Positions 1 through 55,693 of a DNA stretch of 64,000 nucleotides are shown piece by piece (positions within the stretch are counted from its first letter, which is position 1; each line of letters begins with the position of its first letter). Location: contig JAWOBU010000269.1 in assembly GCA_046484135.1 (NCBI GenBank), positions 401-64,400 of the forward strand, read 5' to 3'. This DNA comes from a bacterium. Lineage in GTDB: Bacteria; RBG-13-61-14; DATKZS01. Position numbers and translations under genes: made by a program. Below the pieces are notes generated by a model, which saw only the letters and a list, made by a program, of their open reading frames with translations, was not told where the DNA came from and made no database searches.

Positions 1-103
1 AGGGATAACCCGGCGGGGCTCATCAGACGATGAGAGGGGCGTAGGGATTTCCCCTGCGCCCACCCGATAAATCTCTCATCGGATGATAGACCCCTTATGC
101 CTC
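1..103 (-). repeat. Window-truncated second copy of a ~100-nt hairpin-forming repeat module (homologous to 20575-20677, opposite orientation)
   Basis: Reverse complement of 1-103 aligns almost base-for-base with 20575-20677; differences concentrate in the apical loop and include a compensatory stem change. Confidence 0.75.
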
Positions 104-128
104 AAAAAACTCCCGCCCGAAGGGCGGA
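103..128 (-). terminator. Rho-independent terminator after the 165-416 gene
   Basis: Minus strand reads CCGCCC-TTC-GGGCGG followed by GAGTTTTTT, about 40 nt after the stop codon at 165. Confidence 0.55.
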
Positions 129-3231: not shown

Positions 3232-4296
3232 TTGACAAGCCATTTTATATCCGGAGCGAACAAGACGCCATCTACGGACAGTAAAATATCAAGGGCATCG
3301 AAGAGCTTGATTAAAAAGGCCGGCGGCCGCCCGCTGAAGCTGCTGTATCAACAGGCCCTCCTCAGGTACTCCTCCGAGGTCCGGAACCTGTCGCCATACG
3401 CGCCGAACCCGCGGATCGTCCTGCTCGAACTCTCCAGCCTGTGCAACCTCCATTGCCCCAAGTGCGCGCTCAAGGCGACCAGGCGCGAAAAAGGGCTCAT
3501 GCCCGCGGAAAAGGCCATGGAGCTGATAGACCGGTGCAGCGAAATCAGTCCCGACATCATTAACCTGTCCATGCTGGGAGAGCCGCTCCTGCACCCGGAG
3601 GCAGAAAGGATCGTTTCTTATGCATCGGGCAAAGGGTTTCCGGCCGGGCTTACCACCAACGCCATTCTCCTTGCCCCGGAAAGGTCGAAAAAGCTCCTGC
3701 AAGCCGGGATCAAGTTAATCGTGGTTTCCATAGACGGATGGGACCGCGAGTCGAACGCAAAGCGCCAGCACGGCGCCGACCTGGACAAGATGCTTTTCAA
3801 CCTGAATAAACTCCGCGAGATGCGAGGAAAGAGCGCAAAACCCCGCATCGTGGCCAACACCATCTGGGACAGGGAATGCCTCGAGCATCTTTCCGAAATA
3901 AAAGCGCTGCTCGCTCCCTACGTGGACGACATCCGCCCCATTCCCCTCATAGACTTCGGGGTCCCCGGCCATGAAATAGACCCCGCTCTTGTGCCCGGAA
4001 CCAGATCGTGGAAAAGAGTGCCCTGCCGCTACCTGTGGAACATATTGAGCATCGGGTGGGACGGAGCGGTCACAGCCTGCTGCAGCGACTACGCCTACAT
4101 GCTGAAATACCACCACGTAGACTTAGCCCCCCTTTCCGAAATATGGAACAGCGAAAAGATAAGAAAATGGCGCGAGCTTCATATCGAGGGCAGGTTCAAC
4201 GAAATGCCCATGTGCGGCAGGTGTACAAAAGACTATCTCGATTCCTTTGCCTTCTACCGGCTGAAAGACCGCTTCCATGGAATCGAGGTAAGCTAA
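3232..4296 (+). CDS. Radical SAM enzyme with a C-terminal SPASM/twitch-like Cys cluster
   Basis: CNLHCPKC (CxxxCxxC) plus a C-terminal C..C..CC....C..C region. Track start is TTG; the true start is uncertain. Confidence 0.65.
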   Translation: MTSHFISGANKTPSTDSKISRASKSLIKKAGGRPLKLLYQQALLRYSSEVRNLSPYAPNPRIVLLELSSLCNLHCPKCALKATRREKGLMPAEKAMELIDRCSEISPDIINLSMLGEPLLHPEAERIVSYASGKGFPAGLTTNAILLAPERSKKLLQAGIKLIVVSIDGWDRESNAKRQHGADLDKMLFNLNKLREMRGKSAKPRIVANTIWDRECLEHLSEIKALLAPYVDDIRPIPLIDFGVPGHEIDPALVPGTRSWKRVPCRYLWNILSIGWDGAVTACCSDYAYMLKYHHVDLAPLSEIWNSEKIRKWRELHIEGRFNEMPMCGRCTKDYLDSFAFYRLKDRFHGIEVS

Positions 4297-20285: not shown

Positions 20286-20536
20286 TTTGCCGACCCTTGT
20301 CCGTAAGTGGTTCTAAAGCATTGGAACTATCCATTCCATCATCCGCCCGAGCTGACTTTTGAAAAAGTTTCCAGGATAAAGAATGTGTATGTTCGACTAG
20401 TGTAGTGTCACACTCTGTTTGATCCTTATTAATTCAGTGTAAAGGTTACGGGAGCACCTATGCGATGACAGCTTTCCCTCGCCCTTTCAATATAGACCTA
20501 TGTCCGACCGCTCTCTTGTTTCCGCCCTTTGGGCGG

Positions 20537-20574
20537 CCTGCCTGCCGCGCTACGGCGCAGGCAGGGGGTTTTTT
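20537..20574 (+). terminator. Inward-facing intrinsic terminator just inside the left end of the element
   Basis: CCTGCCTGC...GCAGGCAGG stem followed by GGGTTTTTT on the + strand; preceded by a second small hairpin CCGCCC-TTT-GGGCGG. Confidence 0.5.
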
Positions 20575-20677
20575 GAGGCATGAGGGGTCTATCATCCGAT
20601 GAGATTTATCGGGTGGGCGCAGGATGTGTTTCCTACGCCCTTCTCATCGTCTGATGAGCCCCACCGGGCTATCCCTT
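20575..20677 (+). repeat. Structured ~100-nt module (candidate ncRNA or DNA hairpin), copy 2
   Basis: Rod-like fold: 20584-20596 with 20650-20662, 20597-20604 with 20642-20649, 20615-20623 with 20632-20640. The second copy is at 1-103. Strand of function unknown. Confidence 0.5.
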
Positions 20678-20755
20678 GGCGGGTTGCTCCCCAGCAGAGC
20701 CCGCCTCCGTTTGACCCGGCAAAAACATATTAGCATCCTAACAATATCAAGGCAA

Positions 20756-21526
20756 TCACTCGGCTCCTCCCAGTTCGTCATCAATGGCAAGGTACTCGCG
20801 CACCAACGACAGGCCCATGTTAAGCGTGTAAGCGGTCTCCTCCACGCCAAGGCCTTGAAGTCGGCAGTGGCGTACGCGGTCGTATTGACCCAGGTAGCGG
20901 TCTACCGACTCAAGGCTGTGATAGGTTTCCTCCGCGATCTGGTGCGGCTCCTTGCCTTGGGCGTAACGCTTCAGGCAAATTATCCGCTTGTGGGTCAGGC
21001 CGCTGCCCATGTCGTGAAGAGTGGAGCGGCGAGGAACGATCTTGCCCGTCTTCCGTTCGTGCTCGCAAAGCAAAGAAGCTATTCCGCTGTCAGTGATATT
21101 CATCATCATGGCAAGGTCGCAATTGGACAATAACGCCCCCTGCTCGTAGGCCTGGCGGCACAAACGCAGGGCCTTTTGCAGATGCCTTTCTCGATATCCG
21201 GTCCTTTCCAAAATCAAATCGAGGTCTTCGGGTGTCACCAGATCAAGGACCACGGGAACAAGATCGCTGTCCCGGGTGAGTCGGTATTGCTTCGGCGGAT
21301 CGTTGATGGAATAGCCGAGCCAGAGAACCTGGCCGTGGCTCAAGTTCTCGCGGGAACGCACGTGATCGTCGATCACTTCAAGGACCATGTCGGCGCAAAG
21401 ATCGAGGATGCGAGCGCCACCGAGCCGAGGGAACTCCTTGCCGATCTTGTGGGCAAGCGCGGCCCGCAAGTCCTTGTCCTTGAGCGGGAGGCACTTCTTG
21501 GACACGTAATCAACCTTGCCGCCCAT
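20756..21526 (-). CDS. DUF1670-like helix-turn-helix protein (paralogue B, 256 aa)
   Basis: ATG at 21526 with AAGGAG 8 nt upstream. Motif QGALLSNCDLA...IVPRRSTLHDMGSGLTHKRII plus a second HTH-like segment. Family name is from memory only. Confidence 0.6.
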   Translation of the reverse strand: MGGKVDYVSKKCLPLKDKDLRAALAHKIGKEFPRLGGARILDLCADMVLEVIDDHVRSRENLSHGQVLWLGYSINDPPKQYRLTRDSDLVPVVLDLVTPEDLDLILERTGYRERHLQKALRLCRQAYEQGALLSNCDLAMMMNITDSGIASLLCEHERKTGKIVPRRSTLHDMGSGLTHKRIICLKRYAQGKEPHQIAEETYHSLESVDRYLGQYDRVRHCRLQGLGVEETAYTLNMGLSLVREYLAIDDELGGAE

Positions 21527-22229
21527 GGCCGACGCTCCTTGTTCTTTTTTTCCCCCGGGTCCGGCCGAGTCGCAAAAGCTCGTCAAGGTGGTAACTCATG
21601 TTCTTGTCGCCCTCGCATTCGTTCAAAAGATCGAGGTAATGCTTGATGAGGCCGGGCCCGCGCTTGAGAAGGAAGGCGATCTGACCGACCTGCATCTCCT
21701 GCCGGGCCAAGTGAGCGCACCTTGCGAACGTGGACAAATAGTTGGCCACCGCCTCCGGAGAATGGCGCATGATGCTGCAAATCTGGGTCGTGGTCTTTCC
21801 TTGAAGAGCAAGGCGGATGATCTGCACTCGATGGGTCAACACCGGCCCGATGTCATGCACCGTGCTCCGCAGAGGAAGCGGGACCCCGGGATCGGCCTGC
21901 CTGAGCCAAGAGAGGTCCCGGGTGATGGTGCGAGTAGAGACGAAAAAGATGCGATAGGCAAGGTCCTCGCGGGTCAGCAAAGCTCCCTGGCTCATCGCCT
22001 CTTGGCACAGCTTGGGAATTTTAGTTCTTCTAAACGAGGACGCTCCTTGCCGGCAAAGAAGCTCGTCGTCTTGTACACCATTATGAACGGTAAGGTGGAC
22101 CGTCCGCTTCTCGCAATCCACCACCGGCTTGCCCGCCGGCTCGTCAGCGCTGACCGCCACGAGCGTGATTTTGCCCGGATGACCGGTGGGAGCCTCACGG
22201 TCAATGAACGGTAAATACACTGACAACAT
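21510..22229 (-). CDS. DUF1670-like HTH protein (paralogue A), main frame
   Basis: Homologous to 20756-21526 from FIDREAPTGHPGKITLVAV onward. The region upstream of 22229 in this frame looks non-coding (Arg-rich). Confidence 0.5.
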   Translation of the reverse strand: MLSVYLPFIDREAPTGHPGKITLVAVSADEPAGKPVVDCEKRTVHLTVHNGVQDDELLCRQGASSFRRTKIPKLCQEAMSQGALLTREDLAYRIFFVSTRTITRDLSWLRQADPGVPLPLRSTVHDIGPVLTHRVQIIRLALQGKTTTQICSIMRHSPEAVANYLSTFARCAHLARQEMQVGQIAFLLKRGPGLIKHYLDLLNECEGDKNMSYHLDELLRLGRTRGKKRTRSVGHGRQG

Positions 22230-22356
22230 TAACAACCGCCTCCGCCTCGAAAGGCGAGCAGTTAAGCCCGTGCTGTACTTCGTTTTTGAACCTGGCATCA
22301 AGCGTCTTGCACTCCAGCCTGAGCAACTCCTCCCTGCTTTGGTTGCGTATACCCAT
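22201..22356 (-). CDS. 51-codon ORF likely encoding the N-terminus of paralogue A in a different frame
   Basis: ATG at 22356 has AAGGAGGTG 5 nt upstream. The product (..REELLRLECKTLDARF..FEAEAVVNVV) aligns with the N-terminal helices of paralogue B; overlaps the main frame by 29 nt. Confidence 0.4.
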   Translation of the reverse strand: MGIRNQSREELLRLECKTLDARFKNEVQHGLNCSPFEAEAVVNVVSVFTVH

Positions 22357-22534
22357 CGCAACACCTCCTTTCCATATGCCAATATAATGTATAAATTACC
22401 GGTGGGACATATGTCTAGAAGGGTAGGGCGGAAACAAGAGAGCGGTCGGACATATGTCTATATTGAAAGGGCGAGGGAAAGCTTAAAAGGAATTCATAAG
22501 TGCCAAACAAAGTGATACACTAGCTCCCGTCCGC

Positions 22535-22592
22535 CTCCCACCATCCAAAACCTTTATTGCCGCCTCGATAATCAGACTTTTGCAAGGGGCTC
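22535..22592 (+). repeat. 3' half of a MITE of the 55563-55693 family
   Basis: CTCCCACCATCCAAA...CCTCGATAATCAGACTTTTGCAAGGGGCTC matches the right half of the 55563-55693 element; starts 12 nt after the mobile element flank. Confidence 0.55.
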
Positions 22593-30929: not shown

Positions 30930-31790
30930 GGAGTGCGGTGGCTTGCCGCCGCTTTGTGTCAGGGAGCTTGCTCCCGGTTGCCTTTCTTCCAGCTCCAACG
31001 GAGCGCCGTATATTAGCCAGGGGTTTTAACCCCTGGAAAAATGGGTATGGTTATGGCGCGTCCTGAAGGGACGCTGGAGTCCGTGGGATCGCGGGCGTCC
31101 CTGTCTGCGTGCGGACACGCACAGGCAGGCCGCCCGCTCTTGTTCTGCGGCCGAGACGGCCGCGTTCCCGGCCATTCTCCGCCGTCCCTTTGGGACTTGA
31201 GATGCTGGTCTTGATCGTGTCTGGAAGTCGCTCGCACAGGGGAGATGGGAGGAAACGCAACGGCGCTATGACGCAAGGGAAGAAGGAATATATTTTCAGC
31301 TAACGGAACAAAGACATATCGCGACTGAAGTCGCTCGCACTAAAGTCATGTTGAAAAAAAGAACCGTTGCGGCGTTGTGTCGTTGCGTTTAGAGCCAGGC
31401 TGGTGCTTGGCGGTCCCGGGGGAATTTTGCCAGGCTTCCGCCTGGCGGTCCCGGGGGGAGTTGCGTTTGGAGCCAGGCTGTGCTTATGGTGGGAGAGACC
31501 TCCAGGTCTCGATTATCGTGAGCAGGAGCTCACTCCCACCCGGATAGGCTATGCAGGCGGCGAGAAGCCGCAGGATGAAACCATCCTGTGCCAATGGCAC
31601 CCGGATAGACGAGCTATCCGGGCTACCGATCCATCCTGCGCTTTTTTCAACCGCCAGGCTGGAGCCTGGCGCTCCCAGGTTTTTTTGCCGGGCTCCCGCC
31701 CGGCGGTCCGGGGGGCAGGGCTCAGGCCCTTTCAACCAACTTCATCCTCACAACATCTTCCCTGAATATCCCTCCTGAAGCCTGCGCATG
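30930..31790. repeat. Non-coding mosaic of more than 20 short GC-rich hairpin repeats (REP-like cluster)
   Basis: Includes GCCRGGC-N4-GCCYGGC(GGTCCCGGGGG) units at 31393, 31428, 31653 and 31687; a CGCGACTGAAGTCGCTCGCAC unit at 31320; a 53-nt junction module at 31488-31540; a 28-nt direct repeat at 31381 and 31460. Confidence 0.65.
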
Positions 31791-55562: not shown

Positions 55563-55693
55563 GAGCCTCTTGCAAAAAGGGCGGAGAGAAGGTGGGAGAG
55601 ACCTCCAGGTCTCGATGATCGCGAGCTGGAGCTCGCTCCCACCATCCAAAGTCTAACTTACCCCCTCGATAATCAGACTTTTGCAAGAGGCTC
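55563..55693. mobile_element. 131-bp MITE with 15-bp TIRs and a 5-bp target duplication
   Basis: GAGCCTCTTGCAAAA (55563-55577) is the inverted complement of 55679-55693. GTTTA flanks both sides (55558-55562, 55694-55698). Contains the 53-nt junction module at 55591-55643. Confidence 0.7.

Follow-up and report, generated by a model that had tools for sequence, protein, structure and literature searches.

What is encoded in the hairpin-rich segment that lies at one end of a small insertion sequence (IS)-like element in a bacterial contig (JAWOBU010000269.1; GTDB lineage RBG-13-61-14, DATKZS01), and does this segment act as RNA or as DNA? The stretch analysed here, called the window, comprises 64,000 nucleotides (positions 401 to 64,400 of the contig), and the element in question carries two genes of the DUF1670 family, geneA and geneB, both on the minus strand. 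A sequence-only reading of the window had seen, at 20521-20706, an intrinsic terminator followed by a rod-like hairpin and a further GC-rich one, and proposed either a structured RNA or a DNA hairpin used in cis. All the hairpins it listed are read from the sequence exactly where it had placed them. We find that the structured RNA is genuine and well supported, and we consider it rather probable that the minus strand of 20522-20720 constitutes an independently transcribed structured small-RNA gene, a portable cassette belonging to a large family outside Rfam.

The unit is larger than first described: it reaches to 20720, and the rod, the hairpin at 20679-20706 and the run of six T residues (T6) form a single unit. 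From P1 through P4 the gene measures ~199 nt, including a 29-nt private insertion, with its downstream parts placed by alignment to relatives. All of its parts are given here as read on the minus strand. The 5' domain (20663-20720), defined by covariance model (CM) alignment and by covariation across 99 distinct sequences, consists of helix P1 (20715-20720 pairing with 20663-20668, likewise supported by CM alignment and covariation), the junction strand J12 (UCAAACGGA, 20706-20714), the hairpin P2 (20678-20705) and the junction strand J21 (AAGGGAUAG, 20669-20677). P2 is the hairpin first placed at 20679-20706; in the window copy it reads GGCGGGCUC-UGCUGGG-GAGC-AAC-CCGCC, where UGCUGGG (20690-20696) is the loop and AAC (20683-20685) a bulge. 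The long imperfect rod P3 follows (20584-20662; minimum free energy -43 kcal/mol), supported by compensatory changes relative to a second copy in the window, copy B, and to locus L048 (L numbers denote the related loci compared, L001-L054 being those with the DUF1670 two-gene unit). Next comes a conserved single-stranded A-rich tail, UCAUGCCUCAAAAAACCC (also given as UCAUGCCUCAAAAAACC; 20566-20583), with its A6 run at 20569-20574, and finally the hairpin P4, CCGCCC-AAA-GGGCGG (20522-20536), which is kept in copy B, L046-L054 and L135 and may form the 3' end of the RNA or its terminator. Between tail and P4 lies a 29-nt GC hairpin (20537-20565) that is missing from copy B and from L046-L054; of the two GC hairpins and T6 noted at first, all present, the second is thus an insertion private to the window copy.

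Copy B, truncated by the window start (1-127, plus strand), bears out the earlier observation that the copy at this end retains the stems: J21 and the P1 3' strand occupy 1-14, P3 15-94, the tail 95-112 and P4 113-127. The 21-nt rod arm GGGGTCTATCATCCGATGAGA occurs exactly twice in the window, at 20584-20604 (plus) and 74-94 (minus), with 0 occurrences expected. The two copies face opposite ways, and no DUF1670-element end follows copy B. In copy B the apical stem shows a compensatory change from AGGA/UCCU to AGGG/CCCU, and the middle stem is lengthened by a 2-nt insertion combined with a U-to-C change. The 10-nt internal loop that had been called conserved is so among close relatives, though not family-wide.

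Many more copies were found beyond the window, and they covary strongly. A covariance model of the 5' domain only, R1, built from sequences of types II and III, matches the window at 20653-20725 on the minus strand (79.8 bits, E 5e-21) and has about 160 relatives in genome, metagenome and plasmid loci. It matches 33/54 DUF1670 loci, always just downstream of geneB and on geneB's strand, as well as ~125 loci beyond that set, and it recovers the type I sequences left out of its training at E 1e-5 to 1e-8. A metagenome scan seeded with the exact P2 19-mer gave at least 120 loci, all with the same architecture. The three subtypes differ in their junction strands: GAAACGGA / AAGGGAUA in subtype II, to which the window copy belongs, AAGAGGA / AGCAAUA in subtype III, and AGGAUA / GAGCG in subtype I, the majority type in DUF1670 elements. 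In a plain MAFFT alignment 83% of cells are paired and covariation reaches 0.465 versus 0.159 in shuffles; in the CM alignment of the 99 distinct sequences the values are 90% and 0.562 versus 0.145. None of 500 shuffles attained the observed covariation score on either alignment, and controls with slid pairings stay at or below 0.20 over both (at or below 0.10 on the CM alignment). Each pair of P1 and lower P2 is realised by 4-6 pair types in the CM alignment. P3 varies in sequence and in length (52-143 nt) across the family, and is a hairpin in 48/48 members tested (z < -2 each, median -6.3). What is conserved family-wide are P2, with its nearly invariant core GGCUC-UGCUGRG-GAGC, both junction strands, and the tail, whose consensus (N)AUGCCUYAAAAAACC is found in 55/55 parsed relatives and whose type I equivalent is AAAGCGAUAAACC. 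This core is invariant in genomes from 38% to 73% GC, and the RNA occurs in Planctomycetota, Acidobacteriota, Verrucomicrobiota, metagenome-assembled genomes (MAGs) labelled as Candidate Phyla Radiation, and AT-rich metagenome contigs.

The family is uncatalogued: at gathering thresholds Rfam 15 matches nothing at the site, neither in the window nor in 44 related loci, and under permissive thresholds (E <= 10 / E <= 1) it returns only a chance Fibro-purF match (E = 6) on the other strand. Full-text literature searches for DUF1670 and for the core sequence were empty, while broader ones gave only papers on bridge RNAs, seekRNAs and ISPpu9. Three other interpretations of the sequence were discarded. 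A pairing of the tail with J12 or J21 has no covariation among 55 sequences. Small open reading frames (ORFs), either AUG-CCU-UAA in the tail or a 19-codon frame through P2, are inconsistent across members; P2, moreover, is fixed in sequence, and the positions flanking it change pair by pair. A hammerhead formed from CUGAUGAG on the plus strand involves rod sequences that are not conserved in relatives.

The sequence-only reading had left the functional strand open. The evidence now favours the minus strand, that of the genes. A promoter-like site occupies 20727-20755 (minus), with TTGCCT at 20750-20755, a 17-nt spacer and TAATAT at 20727-20732, ~7 nt before P1; it begins directly after the geneB stop codon (20756-20758). 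Relatives have, at a fixed distance upstream of P1, either TTGAC-N17-nAnAAT (GC-rich members) or TAnnTTTG (AT-rich members). In addition, each of the three subtypes shows a folding advantage of ~5 kcal/mol for the sense strand over its complement (47 to 12, 24 to 3 and 17 to 4; p 5e-7 to 4e-4). Together, the fixed-distance promoter boxes and the consistent folding asymmetry support a gene that would be read on the minus strand. The earlier suggestion that the module would be the 3' untranslated region of the two helix-turn-helix (HTH) genes is not supported, since it has promoter-like boxes of its own and most of its loci have no DUF1670 gene nearby. A count of G-U versus A-C pairs in P1 and P2 was dropped as a means of calling the strand, being uninformative. 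One relative, L086, carries a second, free-standing RNA copy (2445-2607, minus) with a canonical intrinsic terminator 10 nt past the tail, which shows an unencumbered gene of the family.

The same evidence bears on the possibility that the plus strand, or the DNA itself, is the functional form. Read on the plus strand, GGG and U6 come after CCGCCC-UUU-GGGCGG and a second GC hairpin, which the sequence-only reading took for a terminator against read-in transcription; the rod behind it would be an RNA, or a DNA hairpin with a role in cis. Both strands of the 186-nt stretch also fold well relative to dinucleotide shuffles (z = -4.6 for plus, -6.1 for minus). Yet a consensus scan for rho-independent terminators calls none in 20400-20900, three G residues separate the GC stem from T6, and T6 is simply the complement of the A6 run in the tail. 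The plus-strand terminator is not supported, and its appearance is mostly an artefact, because T6 complements a family-conserved tail whether or not a hairpin adjoins it; a stable hairpin after the tail is found in 15/48 family members only. DUF1670 elements that lack the RNA are multicopy, so the module is not needed in cis, and the promoter boxes and the folding asymmetry point to the other strand. We therefore hold a function of the plus strand or of the DNA to be very improbable.

The family is far from confined to the element in which it was noticed. The idea that it constantly accompanies DUF1670 genes fails, since these occur at only 4 of the 120 motif-bearing metagenome loci listed, and specificity for them is likewise rejected. 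The RNA behaves as a portable cassette, made of promoter and RNA and ending exactly at the tail, which we find inside IS3-, IS1111/IS110-, IS481- and Mutator-type units, at the end of TniA/TniB-type transposons and on small Rep/Mob plasmids. In DUF1670 and TniA/TniB-type elements it lies downstream of the last gene and in the same direction, and in the IS3-, IS1111/IS110-, IS481- and Mutator-type units beside the right inverted repeat, where RNA and transposase converge. Of 76 loci, 60 have a convergent nearest downstream ORF, and in at least 35 of the 76 that ORF is a transposase; Pfam assigns 17 of these 76 ORFs to rve, 15 to IS110-type transposase domains and four to the MobV relaxase family, with a few Mutator, IS91 or PD-(D/E)XK transposases or the IS21 helper IstB. 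The upstream side holds a mixture of ORFs (TniB-like AAA_22, DUF1670, IS110, integrases, RepL, housekeeping genes). When loci are compared in pairs, homology sets in 75-118 nt upstream of the core and extends over the RNA and the whole transposase gene (-98 to +1518 in L059/L085, -97 to +1450 in L071/L167, -48 to +1677 in L076/L124), which places the RNA inside these elements. In agreement with this, the IS3-type inverted repeats TGTATCGTCCTGAAATTTGTTTACA / TCTAGTCCTGAAATAGGTTTACA enclose promoter, RNA, orfB and orfA, and the IS1111-type repeats CTATGTTGTAA / TTACAAACATAG likewise enclose the RNA, while in the TniA/TniB-type pair L128/L147 the homology stops exactly at the tail. Five IS3-family loci (L071, L167, L078, L137, L127) have promoter and RNA between the orfB stop codon and the right inverted repeat, convergent with the transposase, and a direct copy of the right-end subterminal sequence at their far end. 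Among 72,556 plasmids there is one match, on pACPOL3 of Acidisarcina polymorpha SBC82 (about 80,221-80,380), 12 nt downstream of an annotated IS110 transposase and in the same direction; this strain is the sole carrier in culture to have turned up. Viral contigs gave 7 matches in 2.9 million, which indicates that the RNA is not a phage feature.

Could such a dispersed module be a selfish repeat, of the repetitive extragenic palindromic (REP) or miniature inverted-repeat transposable element (MITE) kind, that has no RNA function and gathers at element ends since insertions are tolerated there? Like REP palindromes, bacterial interspersed mosaic elements and the Rfam motif Acido-Lenti-1, it has GC-rich hairpins, is multicopy and is associated with insertion sequences; it occurs in many contexts, twice in the window, and in L080 as tandem partial duplications. 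We nevertheless give this explanation hardly any credence. REP- and MITE-type repeats are lineage-restricted, promoterless, without a fixed position relative to genes and conserved at the level of sequence, and the RNA departs from them on each count: its conservation extends across phyla and includes compensatory changes by which RNA pairs are kept, its promoter placement upstream is conserved, and no terminal inverted repeats of the module itself are seen. Rather than being scattered at random as a generic REP, the alternative raised in the earlier description, it holds a fixed place inside mobile elements, and it is kept at one position in DUF1670 elements through deep divergence, down to 52-64% protein identity. 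The REP-like hairpins here appear instead to be the insertion target of the DUF1670 element, the RNA being cargo inside it.

A structured RNA at the edge of an element could also act in cis, as a riboswitch-like sensor or a self-cleaving ribozyme controlling or processing transcription into or out of the element. Its nucleotides in junction and loop are invariant whereas the stems covary freely, a conservation pattern reminiscent of aptamers and ribozymes. The tail directly adjoins the transposase stop codon in IS3- and IS110-type units, no terminator intervening, so that read-through would be antisense to the transposase, and in AT-rich members the P3 apex resembles an intrinsic terminator. 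In GC-rich members, including the window copy, P3 has no U-run, however, and in DUF1670 and TniAB elements the RNA faces outward rather than toward a gene. We found no mutually exclusive alternative pairing, and no Rfam ribozyme or riboswitch model matches. A cis-regulatory role thus seems distinctly unlikely.

More weight has to be given to the bridge RNAs and seekRNAs of IS110/IS1111 elements, which are likewise structured non-coding RNAs of ~150-200 nt in the non-coding end of an insertion sequence, with stem-loops and internal loops. The RNA might be a guide of this type or a direct derivative, an orphan in the window that an IS110-type recombinase uses in trans, or a relic; P3 would then be the target-binding loop, the tail the linker between loops, and P4 or downstream sequence the donor-binding loop. 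In favour of this, ~18 metagenome loci and the plasmid of the one cultured strain have the RNA inside or beside IS110-family genes, and in IS1111-like units it lies within the inverted repeats of the element, in some of them beside a guide-like segment. That segment lies ~60 nt past the tail, outside the RNA as defined here, and changes in step with the left junction: AACCUUCUAUCAG goes with CCTTCTAT followed by GTTG, and AACUUUCCACAG with TCTTTCCAT followed by TTAA. The type I tail CCCAAAGCGAUAAACC agrees with the linker of the IS621 bridge RNA, CCCAAAGUGAUAAACC, at 15/16 positions; the IS621 sequence used was checked against E. coli genomes and matches at 100%.

Against it, tblastn with IS110 proteins finds no IS110-like gene in the 64-kb window, where the carrier encodes DUF1670 proteins only; a DEDD recombinase (PF01548 / PF02371), absent there, accompanies ~18 other members of the family. 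Most members have no IS110 gene nearby, and many reside in IS3, IS481, Mutator or TniAB units or on plasmids; unlike a bridge RNA, the family has no fixed association with a DEDD recombinase. Where IS110 is linked, the RNA mostly runs antisense to the recombinase gene, and its invariant 5' domain has no counterpart in IS621. The IS621 profile match (nhmmer) is weak, at 3.1 bits and second among 2001 sequences of which 2000 were shuffles. We regard a bridge-RNA identity as unlikely, and the relationship as a lead, not a result. Nine IS1111-like units with the above repeats (L059, L064, L085, L092, L142, L162, L165, L166, L168) form the set in which the post-tail segment, AACCUUCUAUCAGUAGAC, covaries with the left junction at CCTTCTAT followed by GTTG, both changing to CUUUCCA in L059 and L085, a behaviour that may be called guide-like. 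At the IS621 locus of one E. coli strain (L176, 1780-2050), the first ~72 nt of the bridge-RNA region are partially duplicated in tandem at the left end.

The omega RNAs of TnpB and IscB (HEARO and relatives) offer a further comparison. They too are structured RNAs at transposon ends with a conserved scaffold, and in DUF1670 and TniAB elements our RNA similarly lies downstream of the last gene, in the same direction and near the element end. It differs in having its own promoter-like boxes and in leaving the Rfam HEARO and IS605-orfB models unmatched. Pfam finds no TnpB (OrfB_IS605) or IscB domain in the neighbouring ORFs of the window, and the top 25 families matched by the 152 ORFs that flank the RNA in relatives include none either.

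What, then, could the RNA do? No protein is common to the carriers, and still the core does not vary from phylum to phylum; our best guess, at less than even odds, is therefore that the RNA works in trans. We tentatively propose a trans-acting RNA with a putative conserved partner, modulating its carrier, rather than a DUF1670 guide, a terminator or a DNA hairpin. It would bind this partner through the P2 loop, the junction and the tail; the partner would be a host factor or belong to a shared step of mobile-element biology, and the effect would be a modulated maintenance or mobility of the carrier. A guide for the DUF1670 proteins is unlikely, because RNA-less elements are multicopy with the same type of target and because P3 differs widely among elements that share the target GCCCC^TNCGGGGC (^ marking the insertion point). 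A match between the P4 arms and the arms of the target hairpin, present in the window type, has the opposite polarity in type I and is for this reason taken as a coincidence between GC hairpins.

Several points weigh against the proposal of a trans-acting RNA gene. The trans-acting role is reasoned by exclusion and its partner is putative. That the RNA is transcribed, where its transcript ends and which strand it occupies are matters that we infer from sequence features: the promoter boxes of the window match just 8/12 consensus positions, which is why a simple scan reports none, and the G-U versus A-C count (71 vs 77) does not discriminate the strands. Context frequencies in the metagenome sample are biased by its P2 19-mer seed and by its restriction to the 120 loci listed, and the taxonomy of the AT-rich members is deduced solely from a Bacteroidota-type promoter motif. 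Finally, the complementarity of the tail to the transposase mRNAs of the carriers is no better than that of shuffled tails in 25 elements, so that the tail was rejected as an antisense seed against these mRNAs and one concrete mechanism is removed.

This last result also separates the RNA from the antisense RNAs of insertion sequences. IS10 RNA-OUT, art200 of IS200 and the Asr9/Ssr9-type RNAs are each confined to a single IS, on whose own mRNA they act through complementarity. As with them (including the Asr9/Ssr9-MITEPpu9 system of ISPpu9), the gene of our small RNA is located within an IS or attached to one; unlike with them, its core is conserved across phyla and common to unrelated IS families, and its tail lacks the excess complementarity to transposase mRNAs. 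Ssr9 occurs with and without its transposase and is regarded as a hitchhiker (PMC12288879).

Another reading, possible though doubtful, is that of a portable RNA module exchanged and kept by unrelated mobile elements for a shared, transposase-independent function, either the recruiting or neutralising of a conserved host factor or a bridge-RNA-like handle for IS110-type recombinases. Under this reading the tail, being both invariant and multicopy, would be a landing site for RNA-guided IS1111-like elements. What is established is an RNA with a conserved core, promoter-like boxes and covariation that is not tied to one protein family and rides at least six kinds of mobile element as well as small plasmids; we could find no described precedent for such a cross-element pattern in the literature. 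It raises the question of what benefit one RNA brings to DDE, DEDD and DUF1670 elements alike. Structured RNAs carried by transposons have repeatedly proved key to new mechanisms, HEARO having led to the IscB omega RNA and the non-coding ends of IS110 to the bridge RNAs.

The carrier in the window (20490-22463, minus strand, ~1974 bp, 94% identical to L046) is of interest in its own right. Its genes match Pfam PF07900 at E 1e-47 and 4e-37. GeneA lies at about 22356-21510 and geneB, which overlaps it, at 21526-20756. Compared with L046, the geneA copy of the window has a 4-nt deletion near 22215 (22203-22220) that shifts the frame, so that this copy of the element is probably defective or else affected by an assembly error. 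GeneB has 1290 homologues, most of them on ~2 kb contigs, the signature of a repeat that breaks assemblies. A genome scan gave 44 DUF1670 loci, spread over Planctomycetota, Acidobacteriota, Verrucomicrobiota and other MAGs; a single long-read MAG holds as many as seven element copies. The DUF1670 proteins have HTH folds only and no recognisable catalytic domain: a profile search against the PDB gives two insignificant matches (E 0.38 and 0.69) and NCBIfam none, and a recognisable transposase was rejected on this basis.

The ends of DUF1670 elements carry the subterminal palindrome GACATATGTC and its variants. The 59-nt terminal inverted repeat first proposed is too long by its outer 20 bp, which are the target palindrome and not the element, so that the element spans ~20490-22463. 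An inverted repeat search places the left half of the target, AGCTTTCCCTCGCCCTTTCA, at 20470-20489 and the right half, TGAAAGGGCGAGGGAAAGCT, at 22464-22483. The insertion point is thus the centre of a perfect palindrome, AGCTTTCCCTCGCCCTTTCA^TGAAAGGGCGAGGGAAAGCT, and L046 and L047 part from the window sequence immediately past GTCTATAT. Other DUF1670 subfamilies are inserted in the loop of GC-rich hairpins, GCCCC^TNCGGGGC, as are, in the same kind of target, the multicopy RNA-less elements L007-L010. No target duplication is visible at DUF1670 elements, and no empty target site is found elsewhere in the window. The DUF1670 two-gene unit hence behaves as an uncharacterised, hairpin-loop-targeting, multicopy IS-like family of ~2 kb, and we flag it as one without a recognisable catalytic fold. 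In RNA-less elements (L004, L005, L007-L012) a TTGAC-type box directly follows the geneB stop and faces the element end, which suggests an ancestral outward promoter, with the RNA cassette placed downstream of it in other subfamilies.

Among the remaining loci, L170 (3533 nt) is an RNA-bearing contig with a 127-nt terminal overlap, which indicates a circular element of ~3.4 kb. By eye, one of its ORFs looks like a winged HTH replication initiator and another like an XRE-type HTH protein. In L070, L072, L075, L091, L112 and L114 (also L109, L164, L170 and L171) the tail is paired with an upstream anti-tail, AGGUUUUCNGGCAU, in a long hairpin that is preceded by repeated CAGCGUUGAAGGUUCGCCCUCUGCUG hairpins. 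Four loci with an anti-tail lie upstream of a MobV relaxase gene, the position expected of an oriT.

At L007, Acido-Lenti-1 matches (1995-2040 and 3865-3910) stand in inverted orientation on either side of an RNA-less DUF1670 element and belong to arrays that also hold GCCCC-GAA-GGGGC hairpins; the window has one such match together with a cluster of similar hairpin repeats (30991-31036, 31394-31720). The Acido-Lenti-1 'sRNA' motif looks like a REP-type repeat that serves DUF1670 elements as habitat or target. The flanks of the element in the window, 20405-20445 and 22484-22525, are inverted repeats of each other, and 22535-22592 and 31488-31540 recur at 55591-55693 within a large palindromic repeat; the surroundings of the element appear to be a landscape of REP/MITE-like repeats.

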